A stretch of 14,429 bases of DNA, taken from positions 1-14,429 of the IMG/VR virus record IMGVR_UViG_2630968766_000006; one strand, 5' to 3'. This document shows positions 1 to 6,933 of the stretch, in pieces (the stretch's first letter is position 1; each line of letters begins with the position of its first letter). The notes below the pieces were generated by a model. The model searched no databases, was not told the DNA's origin, and worked only from the letters and a program-made list of their open reading frames with translations. The translations under genes and the position numbers were made by a program. The stretch is from a virus (Duplodnaviria > Heunggongvirae > Uroviricota > Caudoviricetes).

Positions 1-1221
1 ATGGCGGGCACTAACAAGCTGAGTGATAAAAAGCTAAAGGCGCTACAGGGCGTTGAACGTGATGCGCCTGCAATGTTTGCCGATGGCGAAGGATTGAGCG
101 CGAAAGCCTCCCGGCAAGGCCAATTAAGCTGGGTGTTTTCGTATCGGCTTGGTGGGCGTGGTAGCCGTCTGGAACGTCTGACACTTGGCCGCTACCCGGA
201 TATGTCGCTAAAAGCCGCGCGCGAAAAACGTGAACAGTGTCGGCAATGGCTGGCAAACGGCCATGATCCTAAAACCGAGCTGGTACTGAGTACCGAAGAA
301 ACGCTTAAGCCGGTGACGGTCAAAGATGCGCTGGAATACTGGTTAACAAAATATGCCAGGAAAAAGCGCACCGATGAGGAGCTGGTTAGAGCACAGTTGC
401 AAAAGCACATCTACCCGCGTCTTGGTCATTATCCGCTTACCCGCTGTGAAACTCGCCATTGGGTGGCGAGTCTGGATGAAATAGGTCAGAAGCAGCCAAA
501 AACAGCGGGGCGCATGTTCCAGATCTGCAAACAGGCGTTACGGTTCTGTAAGGTTCGCCGTTACGCTTCCAGTGATGCCCTTGCCATTCTCACCATTCAG
601 GACGTTGGCGAGCCTTCCGGCCAGCGTGACCGCGTGCTATCCGATAGAGAGCTGGCGGATGTGTGGCGCTGTACTTATAGCGATGACCAGCAAGCCTACT
701 ACCTACGGCTTTTAAAAATTCTGGTGCTGTTTGGCGCTCGAACGATGGAAGTGAGGCTGTCACGCTGGTCGGAGTGGGATTTTCATTCATGGATCTGGAC
801 GGTTCCCAAAGAACACAGCAAAACTCGTGAAAAAATTGTGCGGTCGATTCCCGAAGGCATCCGCCCATGGCTGGAAGAATTGAAAAGGCAGACGGGTAAA
901 ACGGGCCTTTTATTGGGTGAGGATCGTACTCGCCAATCGGTGTCACTTAAAGGGCGCAGATTGTATAAAGATTTTCACCATAACGAGCCGTGGACGCTTC
1001 ACGATTTACGCCGGACGTTTTCCACAGGGCTAAACAATATGGGGATTGCGCCGCATATCGTCGAGCTGCTGTTAGGCCATGCTTTGCCGGGAGTGATGGC
1101 GATTTATAACCGTAGTTTGTATCTGCCGGAGAAGCTGGACGCGTTGAATAAATGGTATGAACGTTTAGAACTGTTAATCATGGATTCATCTAATATTATC
1201 ATGTTGAATAGAGGAGCTTGA
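1..1221 (+). CDS. int: Tyrosine site-specific integrase, P4-like
   Basis: 406-aa ORF; C-terminal catalytic region with HDLRRTF...LLGH...AIYNRSLY pattern typical of tyrosine recombinases (R, H-x-x-R, catalytic Y); N-terminal arm-binding-like domain. Last ~60 nt are AT-rich unlike the rest of the gene. Confidence 0.9.
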   Translation: MAGTNKLSDKKLKALQGVERDAPAMFADGEGLSAKASRQGQLSWVFSYRLGGRGSRLERLTLGRYPDMSLKAAREKREQCRQWLANGHDPKTELVLSTEETLKPVTVKDALEYWLTKYARKKRTDEELVRAQLQKHIYPRLGHYPLTRCETRHWVASLDEIGQKQPKTAGRMFQICKQALRFCKVRRYASSDALAILTIQDVGEPSGQRDRVLSDRELADVWRCTYSDDQQAYYLRLLKILVLFGARTMEVRLSRWSEWDFHSWIWTVPKEHSKTREKIVRSIPEGIRPWLEELKRQTGKTGLLLGEDRTRQSVSLKGRRLYKDFHHNEPWTLHDLRRTFSTGLNNMGIAPHIVELLLGHALPGVMAIYNRSLYLPEKLDALNKWYERLELLIMDSSNIIMLNRGA

Positions 1222-1222
1222 G

Positions 1223-1882
1223 ATGGTTAGTTTTATTAAACTCGGCATTTTTGAAAGGGAAGCTAAAACACCAGCACTAAATATTAAACAGCTCTCATTG
1301 TTGCTATGTGGTGAAAGTCCAGATTTAAAAACCGCAGAAATACCAGATAATAAAATCGAAGCATATAATATTTATTATAAGCACATAGGAAAGTGGTTTC
1401 AGTCATCTGGGGTATTTAAAGGGGGGTATACAGTACCACAGTCAGCCGATTACATGTTCGCAATGGCTTACCCAATGATAGACGAAGAACTAACCCCTGA
1501 GCCTATCAAGCGGCGTTGCCTTGAAGCGGTTGCTTCTATAGCTGGTAAAAAAAACGGTAAAGATCTGTTATTAGTTCTTGGGGGAGAGGAATTATATCTC
1601 AAAGGTGTTGAGCTAAGTCGTAATCAGCGGGGGTTACATCGCAAAGAAGATGAACAAGATAATTCAGCAAAGTTGATTGGTTTAATGGCCAAGCTACTGG
1701 CTAAAAAAATAGGACACTCATATGGCAGTGTTGATAAACCAATAACATCTGCTATTTATAATGATATTATTAAAATTGCTGACGATGAGAAAATATCAAA
1801 GAGAGGATTATCAAAATCTACCGTCTATAAAAAATTTTCTGATGCCTCCGCGTTGTTGTCAGTGAACGATGATATGGAATGA
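1223..1882 (+). CDS. Hypothetical protein (219 aa), AT-rich cargo gene with C-terminal HTH-like motif (ISKRGLSKSTVYKKF)
   Basis: ATG at 1223 two nt after int stop (TGA 1219-1221), GAGGAG Shine-Dalgarno at 1211-1216; long ORF in a markedly AT-rich segment (about 1150-2170); no antisense ORF of comparable length; C-terminal segment resembles Hin/resolvase-type HTH recognition helix. Confidence 0.6.
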   Translation: MVSFIKLGIFEREAKTPALNIKQLSLLLCGESPDLKTAEIPDNKIEAYNIYYKHIGKWFQSSGVFKGGYTVPQSADYMFAMAYPMIDEELTPEPIKRRCLEAVASIAGKKNGKDLLLVLGGEELYLKGVELSRNQRGLHRKEDEQDNSAKLIGLMAKLLAKKIGHSYGSVDKPITSAIYNDIIKIADDEKISKRGLSKSTVYKKFSDASALLSVNDDME

Positions 1883-1919
1883 TGAACAATCAACAACAAA
1901 GCTCATGTTGGGTATCGTT

Positions 1920-1966
1920 GCATAATCTGCATAATCTGCATAATCCACAAAATTTGCGAATTATGC
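1920..1966. repeat. Tandem 9-bp repeat GCATAATCT x3 (1920-1946) plus inverted copy ATTATGC (1960-1966)
   Basis: Read directly: gcataatct gcataatct gcataatcc, then attatgc 14 bp downstream. Confidence 0.8.
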
Positions 1967-2050
1967 TATTTTTTGCTTGTTTTCAGTGAGATACGTTAGG
2001 AATTAATGCAATAACATGTTGTATTGAATGATAAACACAAGGGATATTTT

Positions 2051-2118
2051 TTTCACTGGAATTATTATGTTTCACTGGAATAGTTACCTGTTTCAAAAGA
2101 TTCCAGACTTGCTGGAAT
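2051..2118. promoter_or_regulatory. Repeat cluster upstream of alpA: TTTCACTGGAAT direct repeat (2051-2062, 2070-2081) and inverted pair ATTCCAG / CTGGAAT (2100-2106, 2112-2118); putative operator/promoter region
   Basis: Four copies of the CTGGAAT core within 70 bp, ending about 55 bp before the alpA start codon; AT-rich. Confidence 0.45.
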
Positions 2119-2174
2119 TACTGAGTATGCATCCATTAGTATTTGCCCGAAAGCAATGAAACAATGGAGACAGC

Positions 2175-2459
2175 ATGTCTAATATTATCTTTACCCCACC
2201 GAATGCCGAACAGCGTCGCGCTCTTCTGGAAGAATATGGCTTCAAGTTCGAACGTCGCATCCGTGAGGATGAGTGTATCGAGATAACCAGCCTTTCCCGC
2301 TCTACACGTTGGAAAATGGAACAAGAAGGCCGCTTTCCGGCGCGTTGCCACTTTGGTCGTAATTCCTGCGCCTGGCTGCTTTCGGACGTTCTCTGGTGGG
2401 TGCGCAATCCGCCAACCGTTGAGAACGTAAATAACCCTTACAGCCGCAAATCCGCATAA
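2175..2459 (+). CDS. alpA: AlpA-family (P4 Vis-like) prophage transcriptional regulator / excisionase
   Basis: 94-aa ORF, TGGAG RBS at 2166-2170; sequence pattern (ITSLSRSTRWKMEQEGRFP...) typical of AlpA/Vis winged-helix small regulators; conserved position after int in P4-like and PICI elements. Confidence 0.8.
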   Translation: MSNIIFTPPNAEQRRALLEEYGFKFERRIREDECIEITSLSRSTRWKMEQEGRFPARCHFGRNSCAWLLSDVLWWVRNPPTVENVNNPYSRKSA

Positions 2460-2590
2460 TTCATAACAGGTAAATAGCGATGAAAAAAATAAATGCCCTC
2501 ACCGGGCAGGGATTCGATCAGCCTGAAAACAGGCACAAAGCTATTTTGTCACCAGTTTTGAACGGTTGAGGAAAACCACTGATGTTGATT

Positions 2591-2618
2591 AAAACAAAGG
2601 CGGCCTTGCCGGGCCGCC
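2591..2618 (-). terminator. Rho-independent terminator for the minus-strand RHH gene
   Basis: GC hairpin GGCGGCC-ttgccg-GGCCGCC (2599-2618); on the minus strand it is followed immediately by TTTGTTTT (complement of 2591-2598). Confidence 0.4.
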
Positions 2619-2709
2619 AGTGCAATGACACTAAACCTATTCATATCACCAGGCTGATCGCTGGTGGTCAAATCGTGAGCAAAGCTCTAAAAATAGCTTC
2701 GAAACAAAA

Positions 2710-2892
2710 TCAACCTTTTGGCTCGATTCCTTTTGCTCGCAATTTTTCTCGGCAAGCATCTTTCACCCACGCGCTGAATTGCCCTTGCCCTGCGGCTGCG
2801 TTGATTTGCGCCAATAGTTCATCTTCAAAGCGTATGTGCTTCATTGTACTGCCTGATCGGTCAAAATCTTTTTTTGCCTTGGATTGTTGCAT
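2710..2892 (-). CDS. Small ribbon-helix-helix-like DNA-binding protein (60 aa; alternative start at internal Met giving 44 aa)
   Basis: MKHIRFEDELLAQINAAAG...FSAWVKDACREKL fits beta-strand plus two helices of RHH (CopG/Arc-like) proteins; own terminator downstream; start codon abuts an 11-bp inverted repeat. The overlapping + frame 2582-3226 looks non-protein-like. Confidence 0.45.
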   Translation of the reverse strand: MQQSKAKKDFDRSGSTMKHIRFEDELLAQINAAAGQGQFSAWVKDACREKLRAKGIEPKG

Positions 2893-2893
2893 T

Positions 2894-2936
2894 GGTAGTT
2901 ACCACCAGTGTAAAGTTATTATCAATGGTAACTACC
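2894..2936. promoter_or_regulatory. Perfect 11-bp inverted repeat GGTAGTTACCA-N21-TGGTAACTACC in the divergent promoter region between the RHH gene and the first Icd-like gene; putative operator
   Basis: Read directly from sequence; arms at 2894-2904 and 2926-2936. Confidence 0.45.
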
Positions 2937-3027
2937 ATGAAAATGTAAAGCAACTTAAAACAGCGAAGCCCGCGAGTGCTACCAACACTTGCGAGCTTCT
3001 GACCACAACATTATCCGAGGTAACGCT

Positions 3028-3234
3028 ATGGCTTCCGCTAATAGTACCACATCCGCGCGCCCTGAAAATCGCGTGTTTCTCTTCCTTGCCTTATCCCGTG
3101 CCGATCAGAACGCCAGGCCACACCGTGAGCAAGTTATTGCTACCAGCGAACGCGAAGCGCGTCTTATGCTGGTGGGCCGCTACGTGCTTTCTTTTGCTGG
3201 TCGCCTGCCAGTATCGGAGGCTTATCATGAATAA
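3028..3234 (+). CDS. Icd-like small protein (host cell division inhibitor Icd-like family), 68 aa
   Basis: ATG at 3028 with GAGG RBS at 3017-3020 (ORF track opens at TTG 2989); FLFLALSRADQNARP...SEREARLMLVGRYVLSFAGRLP pattern recalled from Icd-like proteins of P4-like elements; stop overlaps next start. Confidence 0.5.
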   Translation: MASANSTTSARPENRVFLFLALSRADQNARPHREQVIATSEREARLMLVGRYVLSFAGRLPVSEAYHE

Positions 3235-3628
3235 GCCAATTACCGCTGCTGCTTACCTGCTTCACACTGCTGATATGTGCGCCTCGCAGGTGTGCCAACT
3301 GGTTGAATGCCACGACGCCGCCGGACACCATGCGCTATGCCAGACATTAGCGGCGGGGCTGACCGCGCTTAAGCTGGCTTGTGATGCGGATATCCAGTCT
3401 TCACCAGTCGCGGAAACAACACTGCCACTTAGCCTGGAGGCTTACTGGCCTGATAATAGTTTGACGCTGGAATACTGCGAAGCACTGGTAAAGGTGCTGT
3501 CTGTTGATGCCTTGCCCCCCGAATTGATCCAGCCGCTTACCGGGCTGTTGCATGACCTGGTGAATATGCTGGCCGACCAGTGGAAAGAAGAACTGAAAAC
3601 CACAGATGCAGGGGGCAATCATGAATAA
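3227..3628 (+). CDS. Hypothetical protein (134 aa)
   Basis: In-frame ATG at 3227 overlapping the stop of the preceding gene; the upstream part of the 348-aa ORF-track entry (2582-3226) is Cys-rich, low-complexity and overlaps better-supported genes, so only 3227-3628 is called. Confidence 0.5.
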   Translation: MNKPITAAAYLLHTADMCASQVCQLVECHDAAGHHALCQTLAAGLTALKLACDADIQSSPVAETTLPLSLEAYWPDNSLTLEYCEALVKVLSVDALPPELIQPLTGLLHDLVNMLADQWKEELKTTDAGGNHE

Positions 3629-3911
3629 GTTCACCTGGCTTTTTCAGGCTATCTACGCCGACCACCAGCCCCCTGTTGTTATGCGCACACAGGCTGATAC
3701 CGAAGAGGATGCCCGCCGCCAGCTTTCCGGCGCATGGTCCTTAACATTTGTCGCCAAACTTAATACGGCCTGCCCGGTTAACCATCAGTTTTACGCAGAA
3801 GAAGATCAATCTATGTGGGGGATTGTTGCCACCAGGCTGACTCATGACGACATCACGCAGTGGGGCAATGAGGTGTTCGGGAATCGTAATAACTTGCGGG
3901 CTACCTGGTAA
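3621..3911 (+). CDS. Second Icd-like small protein (paralog of 3028-3234), 96 aa
   Basis: ATG 3621 with AGGGGG RBS at 3611-3616, overlaps previous stop (ATGAATAAG); shares the motif T-E-E-x-A-R-x-x-L-x-G-x-x-x-L-[ST]-F-x-A-K/R-L with ORF 3028-3234. Confidence 0.5.
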   Translation: MNKFTWLFQAIYADHQPPVVMRTQADTEEDARRQLSGAWSLTFVAKLNTACPVNHQFYAEEDQSMWGIVATRLTHDDITQWGNEVFGNRNNLRATW

Positions 3912-3939
3912 TTCTTCCGGCTAAATAAGGCATTAAATA

Positions 3940-4263
3940 ATGGCTAAAAAAATCAATCAGGTTAAACCTGAGGGCAAAACTCACCCTTTAATTGAGATTA
4001 ACACCCGCTGGAAAGATAACTGGGGTATCAAAATCACTATTTGCAAGGTGGAAGAAAACCGCGTGATGTATATCCGCGACGGGTACAAACATGAATGCGT
4101 ATGCTCACCGGATCGCCTGCGTCGTGAATTTTCTTTCCTCCCGGAAGAGAGCAAGGAATATCAGGCTGCAGCCATCGCCAGAGGCCGTAAACGCGCCGCC
4201 GAACTGCGTCATAGTTTGCCGGTTACCTTTGGATCGGCTGGCTGGGATAAGGGGCTGGTATGA
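3940..4263 (+). CDS. Hypothetical protein (107 aa), translationally coupled to the replication gene
   Basis: ORF ends with ATGA overlap onto the pri-rep start (4260); basic C-terminal region; no recognisable motif. Confidence 0.5.
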   Translation: MAKKINQVKPEGKTHPLIEINTRWKDNWGIKITICKVEENRVMYIRDGYKHECVCSPDRLRREFSFLPEESKEYQAAAIARGRKRAAELRHSLPVTFGSAGWDKGLV

Positions 4264-6080
4264 AGAACGCGCCGAATCTTAAACATCAACCGAAAGATAA
4301 ACATGTTGCGGTGGTTATCTTTGCCGGGGCTGATGCCTTCGCTCACGCTAAAACATGGGAAGAAGGCTGGGGATTAAAAATTGCCGCAGATAAAACACCG
4401 CCTGTCTGGCTGGGGACAAAGCAACTGGCAGAGCTGGCGAACCTGCGCATTATCGACCAGGGGCGTAAGTATGTTCGCATCTATCTTGCCGGAGATATCG
4501 AGTCTGTCCTGATTAACGCCATTGCTGAAAAACTGGCGCTGGCGGGCGTAGAGGAAGCGAAATTATATAAGGGGATACCTGACCAGAACCCGGAAGACTG
4601 GCGCGACTACCTTAACCGGATACGCGGAGAGCATGTGCGTGGTGAAGTCGGTCCGGTGGCGCAAATGATCAAACAGGAATTGGCCGTGACGCTGCCACTT
4701 AACCAGATGGGGCCGAGTCAGCGCGGTGATGTGCTGGCGGCGCATTATGGTAACGATCTGGCAATTGATGGTGATTCCGACACCGTTCACCACTATAACG
4801 GCATGGTCTGGAAACCGTTGCAGGATAAGGAACTGCAAAGAGTAATGGCGCGGATCTTCATTAAGGCAGATATCGCCTATTCACCCGCCAGTGTAAAAAA
4901 TGCGGTGGATGCCATGAAGTTAAGCCTTCCGCAGATGGGAGCGCCAGCCCGCCACCTTATCGGATTTCGTAATGGTGTATTTGATACCCGCGCCGCACAA
5001 TTCCGGGCGCATGACAAAGATGACTGGTTGCTTGTAGCCAGTGATGTTGATTTCTGCCAGCCAGAGAACGGCGAAAGCCTGGAAGCTCACGCGCCTAACT
5101 TCTGGCGCTGGCTGCAACATGCGACGGCGAAAGATGCCCGAAAATCGGATCGTCTTCTGGCCGCGTTGTTTATGGTGCTGGCTAACCGCTACGACTGGCA
5201 ATTGTTCCTTGAAGTGACGGGACCGGGTGGCAGCGGTAAAAGCGTTATGGCGGAAATCTGTACCATGCTGGCCGGCAAGGGTAACACGGTGTCGGCGAGT
5301 ATGGGCGCGCTGGAAGTACCACGCGAAAGGGCGCTGGTGGTTGGTTATTCACTGATTATCTTGCCGGATATGAGCCGTTACGCCGGAGATGGCGCAGGCA
5401 TTAAAGCCATAACAGGTGGTGACCGGGTATCTATAGATCCGAAGCATAAAGCGCCGTATTCCATTCGTATTCCCGCTGTGGTGCTGGCGGTTAATAACAA
5501 CGCGATGACATTCAGTGACCGCAGTGGGGGGATCTCCCGCCGCCGGGTGATTTTCAACTTCCCGGAGGTTGTGAACGAGAAAGACCGCGATCCTATGCTG
5601 GTGGAGAAAATCGAGGCGGAATTACCGGTCATCATCCGCCATCTGTTAACCCGCTTTACCAGGCAGGACGACGCCCGCCAGTTACTGGCTGAACAGCGTA
5701 AATCCGAGGAGGCCTTAGCCATTAAGCGCGAAGGTGATTCGCTGGTGGACTTTTGCGGCTATCTGATGGCATTGCTTGAATGTGAGGGAATGATTGTGGG
5801 TAATGCGGAAATGACGCCATTCAGCCCGCGCCGTTATCTCTATCACGCCTATCTGTCATATATGTCAGCGCATGGTCTGGGAAAGCCAGTATCACTGACC
5901 CGCTTTGGTACTGATATGCCGGGGGCGATGGCTGAATATGGCGCGGAGTATAAGCGCAGACAATGCACCAGGGGACCAGATAAAGGCCGCACTATTTCAA
6001 ACGTTCGGTTAAAGGATGAGGCGGATACATGGCTTCCGGCGGCAACGGGTATTAATACTGAACTTAACGAGGAAAATTAA
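4260..6080 (+). CDS. Replication initiator: primase / SF3 helicase (D5 N-terminal-like plus P4 alpha C-terminal-type helicase domain), PICI pri-rep
   Basis: 606-aa ORF; Walker A GPGGSGKS (LEVTGPGGSGKSVMAE) and downstream Walker B-like hydrophobic stretch ending in D (LIILPDM) as in SF3 helicases of phage/plasmid primases; followed immediately by an iteron-rich AT-rich region. Confidence 0.85.
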   Translation: MKNAPNLKHQPKDKHVAVVIFAGADAFAHAKTWEEGWGLKIAADKTPPVWLGTKQLAELANLRIIDQGRKYVRIYLAGDIESVLINAIAEKLALAGVEEAKLYKGIPDQNPEDWRDYLNRIRGEHVRGEVGPVAQMIKQELAVTLPLNQMGPSQRGDVLAAHYGNDLAIDGDSDTVHHYNGMVWKPLQDKELQRVMARIFIKADIAYSPASVKNAVDAMKLSLPQMGAPARHLIGFRNGVFDTRAAQFRAHDKDDWLLVASDVDFCQPENGESLEAHAPNFWRWLQHATAKDARKSDRLLAALFMVLANRYDWQLFLEVTGPGGSGKSVMAEICTMLAGKGNTVSASMGALEVPRERALVVGYSLIILPDMSRYAGDGAGIKAITGGDRVSIDPKHKAPYSIRIPAVVLAVNNNAMTFSDRSGGISRRRVIFNFPEVVNEKDRDPMLVEKIEAELPVIIRHLLTRFTRQDDARQLLAEQRKSEEALAIKREGDSLVDFCGYLMALLECEGMIVGNAEMTPFSPRRYLYHAYLSYMSAHGLGKPVSLTRFGTDMPGAMAEYGAEYKRRQCTRGPDKGRTISNVRLKDEADTWLPAATGINTELNEEN

Positions 6081-6094
6081 AAATAGTCTTTAAA

Positions 6095-6391
6095 CTGTCT
6101 ACCGTATCTACCAGATAATTAATTGATATATAAATCAGTGAGTTAAATTGGTAGATACCTGGTAGACAGTAAGAGACTAAGTGTCTTCTGTATCTACTTT
6201 ATTTTTTATTAAAGCTCTAAAAGCCAAAGTGCAAAAAAGCACTCTGGAACAAATTCAATCGCTTATGTGACTATCTTACATTTATAAGTAGAGGGTCTGG
6301 TAGAGAGTAGTAGATACATCAAAGGGTAAGTGTTTACCACTTAACTTAATGAAAATAATAGTAAATTTCATGGGGGTAGACAGGTAGACAG
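6095..6391. repeat. Putative replication origin: iterons GGTAGACAG / GGTAGATAC in direct and inverted orientation within AT-rich DNA
   Basis: CTGTCTACC-GTATCTACC (6095-6112); GGTAGATAC-ct-GGTAGACAG (6150-6169); GTATCTAC (6190-6197); GTAGATAC (6310-6317); GGTAGACAG-GTAGACAG (6375-6391). Located directly 3' of the primase/helicase gene. Confidence 0.6.
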
Positions 6392-6434
6392 TTTGAGCAC
6401 ATAAGTTTATTTTTTCTTATTTACGAGGATTTTA

Positions 6435-6713
6435 ATGATGTTTAATTTTAAGGATGTTCTGGAATATCGCGAATTTTATGGAATGAATAATAATTTTCAG
6501 GACATGGGCCTGTCTGATTATGCCGAAGCTCTCAAAAATGAAGCGATAGTGCATATTGATTGTCATGGTTTTTTGGTTGATGCATTCAGCGGTATGGTGC
6601 TTGCTGCCGATGGTGAGCAACTGGATTTATTTATCGCGCACCTGCAAAAAATACGCCGTGAATTACCTGACGGAATGCGTGATAAAAATCTGAGGGACTC
6701 ATTAAGAAAATAG
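6435..6713 (+). CDS. Hypothetical small protein (92 aa), AT-rich
   Basis: GAGGA RBS at 6425-6429, ATG 6435; followed by a hairpin terminator; no recognisable motif. Confidence 0.5.
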   Translation: MMFNFKDVLEYREFYGMNNNFQDMGLSDYAEALKNEAIVHIDCHGFLVDAFSGMVLAADGEQLDLFIAHLQKIRRELPDGMRDKNLRDSLRK

Positions 6714-6732
6714 TTTTGTAAATTATTTGTTC

Positions 6733-6786
6733 GCCTGTTTTCACCGTTGTTCACGCCGGAAACAGGCTATTTACTTCAACTTTTTC
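6733..6786 (+). terminator. Putative rho-independent terminator after ORF 6435-6713
   Basis: Stem GCCTGTTT (6733-6740) / AAACAGGC (6760-6767) with 19-nt loop, followed by T-rich tract tatttacttcaactttttc. Confidence 0.3.
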
Positions 6787-6933
6787 ATGTATATGTTAAC
6801 GGGTGGCACTCAGACGTGAGCCGCCACCGATCCCCCGGTTTCCTGCCGTATCTGCAACGGTTCCTTTTCCGGGGGATCATCTCCCTTCCGTGCTGGTTTC
6901 ACGTCTCCTCTTATTTTTTGCGAGAAACCACAC

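Follow-up and report, generated by a model that had tools for sequence, protein, structure and literature searches.

Control of Gram-negative phage-inducible chromosomal islands (PICIs) rests with alpA, which encodes the master activator of the island, an excisionase-family regulator (PMC6092414). Transcription of alpA is switched on by a helper phage and AlpA then activates its own synthesis (PMC6092414, PMC11773190), while neither an island repressor nor a phage inducer of alpA has been identified so far (PMC6092414, PMC11773190, PMC10111431); helper-phage switching of alpA is an acknowledged open question. The element considered here lies upstream of alpA in a stretch of 14,429 nucleotides, positions 1 to 14,429 of the IMG/VR virus record IMGVR_UViG_2630968766_000006, hereafter the window. 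It is an array of four CTGGAAT-type sites that very probably constitutes a functional control element of the alpA promoter, PalpA. Judged from its sequence, the array is a putative operator or activator-site array at the switch promoter of a mobile element, conserved and specific to one gene module. That module includes the gene located between int and alpA, termed X in all islands and ORF219 (an open reading frame of 219 codons) in the window.

PalpA of EcCICFT073, EcCIMP1 and EcCIEDL933 is found in mobile elements of the same kind and in the same place, between the int side and alpA, which is the master switch there too. The upstream region in known Gram-negative PICIs responds functionally to the helper phage and to AlpA, and in other islands excision and transfer require AlpA (PMC6092414, PMC11773190). 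EcCICFT073 differs from the window in displaying no X gene and no TGGAAT sites, with ACAAC-type phased repeats in the spacer. Its int-alpA spacer (L208, NC_004431.1) extends for 365 bp without a gene and presents six ACAAC-core units phased at 10 bp immediately after int, together with a related copy, ACACCCTGACACAATCCGACACAAC, some 55–75 bp before the start of alpA (features at 8188–8252 and 8449–8473). The searchable literature yielded no account of PalpA cis elements or of a link with ORF219.

The Cox boxes of phage P2 at the PLL promoter of satellite P4 are likewise multiple short repeats located upstream of a satellite switch promoter, through which a helper signal is read (PMC3936717). 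They display one unit per helical turn, a property shared by the distal arrays described below and displayed in related islands. In contrast, the TTAAAG/CNCA consensus of the Cox boxes is absent here, the window contains three distal units (two in island L070) at 9 bp as opposed to at least six at 10–11 bp, and the proximal sites of the window are 12-mers placed 16–21 bp apart, including a dyad over the -35 region. The Stl system of Staphylococcus aureus pathogenicity islands (SaPIs; in part PMC6092414) is similar in that a variable island gene adjoins int and a multi-site control region precedes the activation genes; as is proposed here for ORF219, a variable part of the protein could sense helper proteins. 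Stl is divergently transcribed and has a recognisable helix-turn-helix (HTH), whereas ORF219 is transcribed in the same direction as alpA, lacks any detectable DNA-binding fold and is only a putative repressor. A gene order of the same type is presumably present in CP4-57 of E. coli K-12 (intA-yfjH-alpA), where an uncharacterised gene on the same strand separates int from alpA, its product YfjH being unrelated in size to ORF219.

The CTGGAAT array upstream of alpA

The original prediction described two families of short repeats upstream of alpA, CTGGAAT copies and 9-bp units, and both are real and match its description. Copies of CTGGAAT are located at 2056, 2075 and 2112 (+ strand) and at 2100–2106 (− strand). 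To the two exact direct copies of TTTCACTGGAAT (2051–2062 and 2070–2081) and the inverted pair, a degenerate third direct copy, TTTCAAAAGATT, can now be added at 2091–2102. The 3' end of this copy overlaps the inverted ATTCCAG and the array is thus read as four sites of about 12 bp (A, B, C' and D) whose starts are 19, 21 and 16 bp apart. Overall, the layout of 2051–2118 consists of two direct TTTCACTGGAAT sites followed by the inverted pair ATTCCAG-N5-CTGGAAT. This arrangement is implausible by chance, since the whole window contains nine CTGGAAT matches against 1.97 expected, a number reached in none of 200 shuffles, and four of the copies fall inside 63 bp (Poisson probability of about 1e-10). 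The elements of the promoter region are listed below with their columns in A3, an almost gapless MAFFT alignment of 12 non-redundant promoter-proximal regions from the islands compared in this section.

2051–2062, + strand: site A, TTTCACTGGAAT (A3 columns 17–28)
2070–2081, + strand: site B, TTTCACTGGAAT (A3 columns 36–47)
2090–2106, + strand: site C', GTTTCAAAAGATTCCAG, degenerate direct copy terminating 3' in the inverted ATTCCAG (A3 columns 56–72)
2107–2118, + strand: site D, ACTTGCTGGAAT, in a dyad with C' (TTCCAG-N5-CTGGAA), its TGGAAT (2113–2118) at the putative -35 position
2137–2142, + strand: predicted -10 hexamer TAGTAT of PalpA (A3 columns 103–108)
2175–2459, + strand: alpA (Pfam Phage_AlpA, phrog_2790), with the Shine-Dalgarno sequence GGAG at 2166–2169

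The hexamer downstream of the array follows the pattern TAnnnT in the 12 loci of A3, where T103 is present in 90% and A104 and T108 are invariant, and it is always located 17–18 nt past site D and about 32 nt before the ATG. We infer that this hexamer is the -10 element of PalpA, with a predicted transcription start near 2149. It follows that TGGAAT of site D would occupy the -35 position, and the centres of the C'/D dyad, site B and site A would lie near -41, -74 and -93, respectively, relative to that start. A simple consensus promoter scan does not call PalpA. The likely control element is thereby narrowed to about 70 bp comprising four defined sites and the predicted promoter. A structured RNA in this region was considered and set aside, as a scan of 1800–2650 against Rfam returned no match at the gathering score. 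On the minus strand a promoter-like match is found at 2028–2056 (GTGAAA, 17 nt, TATCAT), whose -35 is the complement of TTTCAC of site A; this is a consensus match only, of a kind expected at chance frequency. The alpA 5' leader of several islands (L002, L008, L014, L018, L020 and others) contains an inverted repeat, CCTCCAC...N14...GTGGAGG, that would pair the Shine-Dalgarno sequence with an anti-Shine-Dalgarno sequence. Its equivalent in the window is TCCATT/AATGGA (2132–2137 with 2163–2168), the upstream arm of which overlaps the predicted -10 and may lie outside the transcript.

Conservation of the array was examined in 68 loci (designated by L numbers) with relatives of the AlpA of the window, one genome being taken per species. 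Most of these loci display unrelated sequence upstream of alpA, whereas a subset presents the same layout at the same distance to the start codon: two sites some 7 nt apart, followed after about 9 nt by TTTCAAAAGATTCCAn and after a further 5 nt or so by nTGGAAw. As revealed by tblastn with the proteins of the window, this subset corresponds exactly to the loci of the 68 with an ORF219 homologue (L003–L007, L011, L017, L061 and L064). Further ORF219 homologues, retrieved by protein search from Yersinia, Rahnella, Citrobacter, Proteus, Edaphovirga, Serratia, Pectobacterium, Providencia and other E. coli strains, are found every time in the order int, X, spacer and AlpA-family gene, together with the array. 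The architecture is therefore present in 16 of 16 independent ORF219-carrying islands, from about 12 genera ranging from Escherichia to Xenorhabdus and Proteus, and in none of about 45 other alpA loci, whether these carry another X family or no X gene. The number, order, orientation and spacing of the sites are retained in the 12 loci of A3 and in four more, so that for the CTGGAAT family the comparison of related islands shows repeat number and spacing to be conserved wherever ORF219 is present.

Within A3 the TGGA core is invariant in A, B and D, as are AGATTC in C' and the key positions of TAnnnT. C' is the best-conserved element of the entire spacer, with G65, A66, T67, T68 and C69 invariant. 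The pairing of the C'/D dyad is kept in 88% of cells, in comparison with 16–55% when the partner column is slid, and compensatory changes are observed at two pairs; in Proteus both arms are altered, TTCC...GGAA having become TTCT...AGAA (a compensatory CG-to-TA change). A position weight matrix derived from the sites detects clusters of at least three hits per 100 bp at alpA only in ORF219-type loci (Proteus has two hits), a result that is circular for the loci from which the matrix was built and independent only for the negative ones; two other loci have three-hit clusters away from alpA. Within one array the sites are more similar to one another than to those of distant arrays, pointing to concerted change, and four classes of site core are distinguished according to the identity of ORF219 to that of the window:

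ORF219 64–70% identical: site core CTGGAAT
ORF219 57% identical (Klebsiella, Enterobacter, Citrobacter type, E. coli L079): site core ATGGAAT
ORF219 55% identical (Proteus, Providencia): site core CTAGAAAT
ORF219 29–30% identical (Erwinia, Pantoea, Acerihabitans): TGGATT at sites A and B

The class of the site core thus tracks the divergence of ORF219 and follows neither that of the integrase (Int) nor that of AlpA. The Int of L006 is 83% identical to that of the window, while its X protein is 29% identical and its motif differs; in contrast, Int of L061 and L064 is only 25% identical and the motif is the same. Similarly, islands whose AlpA is 85–93% identical lack the sites, among them L001 and L002 (90–93%), whose upstream repeats are quite different, whereas CTGGAAT is kept next to an AlpA of 63–67% identity in L071 and L073. 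In the Xenorhabdus and Edaphovirga islands L061, L064 and L081 the array precedes a different AlpA paralogue of 68–71 aa. This short AlpA/HTH_17 paralogue is located 3' of the array at about 5790–5985 in L061 and at 3144–3359 in L081, and also in L064; in Xenorhabdus it is followed by an AlpA of 88–94 aa, giving two AlpA-family genes in tandem.

The array was also sought outside these islands. BLAST against 50,697 phage genomes returned no copies, with limited sensitivity, and the dyad pattern matched only two contigs in IMG/VR, both satellite-sized. More than 119 hits were returned by a looser A-B pattern; by rough estimate this is about chance level for a pattern of such degeneracy and hence uninformative.

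The 9-bp repeats of the spacer

The second repeat family lies closer to ORF219. Three head-to-tail copies of TGCATAATC occupy 1919–1945 with a period of 9; the first two 9-mers read GCATAATCT and the third GCATAATCC (8/9 match), and an inverted ATTATGC is present at 1960–1966. GCATAATC occurs four times in the window against 0.64 expected, three of the four copies being adjacent, and here too chance is an implausible explanation of the arrangement.

1919–1945, + strand: tandem repeat TGCATAATC x3, period 9, variable in copy number
1929–1984, + strand: hairpin pairing repeat unit 2/3 with the inverted copy GCGAATTATGC, which ends at 1966, then the T-rich TATTTTTTGCTTGTTTTC

The GCATAATCT sequence is found in none of the homologous islands, and among otherwise identical E. 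coli islands the unit number is three in the window and L069 and two in L070. The proposal that the repeats form a multi-site control region of alpA is consequently supported for the CTGGAAT family, with 16 islands from about 12 genera and a site at the putative -35, and is not supported for the GCATAATCT family, which is absent from homologous islands and varies between three and two copies. What is general is the type of repeat: every ORF219-type spacer contains one to several blocks of tandem repeats with a 9–10-bp period and an island-specific sequence. Recurrence of 4-mers at lags of 9–11 reaches z = 4.5–44 in all ORF219 loci, compared with at most about 5, on few counts, in the 45 other loci of this AlpA family. 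Copy number differs between close relatives, being 4.8, 3.8 and 5.8 in the near-identical L003, L004 and L005 and differing also within L073/L074 and L079/L080. A phased TCAY core is present in about half of the islands and not in the window. The 9-bp array of the window looks like a reduced version of the family arrays, since its spacer is the shortest of the family (292 bp versus 340–730 bp). The block at 1919–1966 may thus be regarded as a separate, slippage-prone 9-bp mini-array, one instance of the helically phased 9–10-bp arrays of ORF219 modules.

The distal units recur nowhere else in any locus and are confined to the X-alpA spacer. An origin or iteron function of the phased arrays was rejected on this confinement and on their lack of relation to the GGTAGAYA repeats at 6092–6400. 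A recurrence of the distal units in the promoter spacer was rejected as well: the 8/9 inverted TGCATAATC copy at 2123–2131, between -35 and -10, is taken as chance, and the units of each island match their own promoter spacer and those of other islands without enrichment (mean 6.4 versus 6.28 of 8). The hairpin at 1929–1984 is probably a weak or marginal candidate terminator of the int-ORF219 transcript.

ORF219 and other candidate binders

1–1221, + strand: tyrosine integrase gene int (Pfam Arm-DNA-bind_3, Phage_int_M, Phage_integrase)
1223–1882, + strand: ORF219 (X), uncharacterised all-helical protein of 219 aa (phrog_30524, E = 5.6e-77)

The int stop codon is located 1 nt upstream of the ORF219 start and the two genes therefore probably form one operon; the int-X junction is equally tight in all related loci. 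phrog_30524 is a family without known function, and ORF219 has no match in Pfam, NCBIfam or PADLOC. Only 45 cluster representatives are found among 1.84 billion proteins, nearly all of 205–240 aa, and an AlphaFold2 model (predicted local distance difference test score 85) yields no fold match. Sub-threshold matches to Phage_AlpA or SpoIIID (E of about 0.01–0.02) appear in two of 19 family members, and the 16-residue hhalign match of GLSKSTVYK in ORF219 with the AlpA recognition helix is non-significant (probability below 1%). The C-terminal half is mildly basic and conserved in both clades, whereas the N-terminal 120 residues are strongly divergent, a pattern that fits a constant DNA- or effector-module joined to a variable sensor. 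Like Stl, ORF219 is encoded next to int; it is probably co-transcribed with int, and no HTH is recognisable in it.

By linkage, ORF219 is the best single candidate for the binder of the array, an assignment that is put forward tentatively and judged somewhat short of an even chance. Region 2051–2118 would be a cis-regulatory array of four sites of about 12 bp for one sequence-specific protein, with the dyad covering -35, and would form, together with ORF219 and a variable spacer, an exchangeable cassette on the int side. ORF219 protein would be produced along with the integrase during quiescence of the island, bind the four sites and set the state of PalpA, most likely by occluding -35 so that alpA is off or poised. 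Infection by a helper phage would then alter ORF219 activity, alpA would fire and AlpA would amplify its own synthesis. If ORF219 does bind, repression is only slightly favoured over activation. The full reading, in which an ORF219-bound four-site array sets PalpA and the 9-bp block is a separate matter of slippage and a terminator, is given close to an even chance.

Other X families at the int-alpA position display private short repeats beside the alpA core promoter, within 170 bp upstream of alpA: ATTAAGG in L001 and L013, whose X proteins are only 27% identical, TTTTCCGGAA in L002 and L020 (X proteins 31% identical) and TTCTAA/TTAGAA in L012, L019 and L033. The association of private repeats with these X families suggests exchangeable regulator-plus-operator cassettes. 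A wider proposal, rather doubtful at present, is that ORF219 is the missing island-encoded regulator or sensor in a subset of Gram-negative PICIs and capsid-forming PICIs (cf-PICIs), a functional analogue of SaPI Stl with an unseen DNA-binding fold, the C-terminal half of which would read the TTTCAnTGGAAT sites while the N-terminal half would sense a helper protein; int-alpA genes in general would then be exchangeable regulator-plus-operator cassettes that set helper specificity, rather than cargo.

Several observations weigh against ORF219 as the regulator of PalpA and against parts of the reading built on it. An X gene is missing from the prototype EcCICFT073, whose alpA is nevertheless helper-inducible (PMC6092414). 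The original prediction labelled ORF 1223–1882 as HTH-bearing, and this is not borne out, as domain and fold searches detect no DNA-binding domain or fold in the protein. The consensus match of PalpA is weak (-35 3/6, -10 4/6, 18-nt spacer), and such weakness is as compatible with activation as with repression. The linkage of ORF219 with the array may be trivial: the two could travel as a non-homologous cassette swapped through recombination in the conserved int and alpA flanks, recombination being confined to those flanks because the cassette has no homology to other cassettes, and the motif variants could track ORF219 through common descent alone. An IS1-disrupted allele of the ORF219 homologue is present in at least one complete E. 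coli chromosome that retains the island, and such a natural knock-out is awkward for an indispensable repressor. In this allele (L080, 1120–2365; E. coli TUM9754, NZ_CP128939.1) IS1A interrupts the gene and the C-terminus is lost, with the array, alpA and the remainder of the island left intact; a second genome (H21) shows only the same partial match. As to the terminator, the hairpin of the window folds at -13.1 kcal/mol (z = -1.8) with an AU-rich stem followed by TATTTTTTGCTTGTTTT and is not called by a consensus terminator scan; hairpins 3' of the X stop are clearer in L061, L064 and L073, and terminators are not consistent in other islands.

Some of these observations also speak for a transcription activator of the helper phage as the protein bound to the four sites. 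In such a scheme the dyad near -41 would be class-II-like, the upstream sites auxiliary and ORF219 a cargo hitch-hiking within the cassette, for example a defence gene housed in the int-alpA hot spot. Helper phages do turn on alpA transcription in EcCICFT073 and EcCIMP1 (PMC6092414, PMC11773190), the former has no X gene at all, and EcCIMP1_002, at the position of ORF219, is treated in the literature as an accessory gene (PMC11773190); the weakness of PalpA, the lack of a DNA-binding fold in ORF219 and the tolerance of the IS1-disrupted allele agree with it. A hijacked phage regulon should nonetheless have sites in phages, and, within the limited sensitivity of the search, the 50,697 phage genomes contained none, only the two satellite-sized IMG/VR contigs being matched. 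Moreover, in the 45 loci the array never accompanies another X family and never occurs without X, one motif is retained from E. coli through to Xenorhabdus though the helper phages should differ, and the absence of a PADLOC hit counts against the cargo or defence component. Defence-gene annotation was set aside for ORF219 and for five other X families alike, none giving a PADLOC hit. A helper activator is a candidate as well, though rather unlikely. AlpA itself, which the original prediction had also listed among the binders, is far less probable still. Members of its excisionase family bind direct repeats, P2 Cox being an example (PMC3936717). The sites would in that case be autoregulatory, and AlpA does activate PalpA in EcCICFT073 and probably in EcCIMP1 (PMC6092414, PMC11773190), yet the alleles are incongruent: the AlpA proteins of L001 and L002, at 90–93% identity, face entirely different repeats, the more distant ones of L071 and L073 retain CTGGAAT, and in L061, L064 and L081 the array stands before another paralogue. 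AlpA was rejected as binder on this incongruence. Two other binders were discarded. Integrase arm-type sites are disfavoured, as the motif does not change along with Int and the sites, at a distance of about 2 kb to the int-proximal end, are too far from att. A host factor is disfavoured by inference, rather than by a scan, from islands of the same species that differ in motif (CTGGAAT in the window, ATGGAAT in E. coli L079).

The distal repeats admit a different interpretation, in which the 9-bp TGCATAATC units and the 10-bp arrays of related islands are Cox-box-like nucleation sites, along which a small protein of excisionase type, either a helper Xis, Cox or Apl or the AlpA of the island, polymerises on one face of the helix and remodels the region upstream of alpA. 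This agrees with units spaced one to a helical turn in all ORF219 modules, with the phased ACAAC repeats (x6) of EcCICFT073, which has no X gene, with the phased TCAY core common to about half of the islands and with the precedent of P2 Cox, which binds at least six boxes 10–11 bp apart upstream of the PLL promoter of P4 and lifts repression of the satellite (PMC3936717). Against it, the window has only two to three units, at 9 bp and without the TCAY core, unit sequences are unrelated among islands with nearly identical AlpA, unit number drifts freely among near-identical islands, and units are not above chance at the core promoter. It is considered unlikely. That both families are functionless slippage or chance repeats would suit an AT-rich and clearly slippage-prone spacer; for the CTGGAAT family it is scarcely credible, given an architecture kept in about 12 genera, concerted change among the sites and a fixed geometry to the -10. 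If the partner of the array is ORF219, whose small, uncharacterised family is the prime candidate, the genes between int and alpA that carry a 'hypothetical cargo' annotation would determine satellite-helper specificity; should the partner be another protein, the helper-encoded inducer can still be sought through these sites. The IS1-interrupted allele of L080 is a natural knock-out useful for the function of ORF219.

Island context

The window is by its predicted genes a cf-PICI, with int, ORF219, alpA, primase, head and terminase genes, and the + strand carries every gene listed: int, ORF219, alpA, the genes for an Icd-like protein and a DUF4222 protein, the primase gene and the head/packaging module.

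4260–6080, + strand: D5-type primase

The head/packaging module is complete and comprises capsid, prohead protease, portal, head completion protein, connector, HNH, TerS and TerL, whereas no scanned ORF of the window matched a tail-gene family. An hpt-like phosphoribosyltransferase gene at the right edge represents the host flank. An identical ORF219 protein is encoded in E. coli draft genomes, where the island adjoins gcd (left flank, L069); megablast of the spacer against complete E. coli genomes gave no matches, the identical module being found only in draft assemblies. The only deposited phage record with ORF219 is vB_KppS-Ant (L087, LR881103.1, 'Escherichia phage vB_KppS-Ant'), 16.5 kb in length, and the record is itself a cf-PICI with the int-X-array-alpA module. 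It derives from an induced prophage, and such islands are thus inducible and packaged. The tape measure protein annotation given to one gene of the record looks mistaken.

Immediately 3' of alpA, 2582–3628 of the window contains one ORF of 348 aa with a 97% identical E. coli match labelled RepA-family helicase. L069 and L070, islands otherwise identical to the window, present instead, at 4806–5460, ORFs of 68 aa plus 133 or 153 aa, a difference that indicates mosaicism directly downstream of alpA. The major capsid gene (6934–8100) contains an in-frame stop at codon 270 (7741–7743; LYKLK*KYRKNAV) with both halves matching Phage_capsid. A nonsense mutation, a pseudogene and a sequencing error are all conceivable, and the island is possibly unable to make capsids of its own. 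Finally, iteron-like GGTAGAYA/TRTCTACC repeats are found in both orientations at 6092–6400, in an AT-rich gap past the primase gene, and this region is probably the replication origin of the island.

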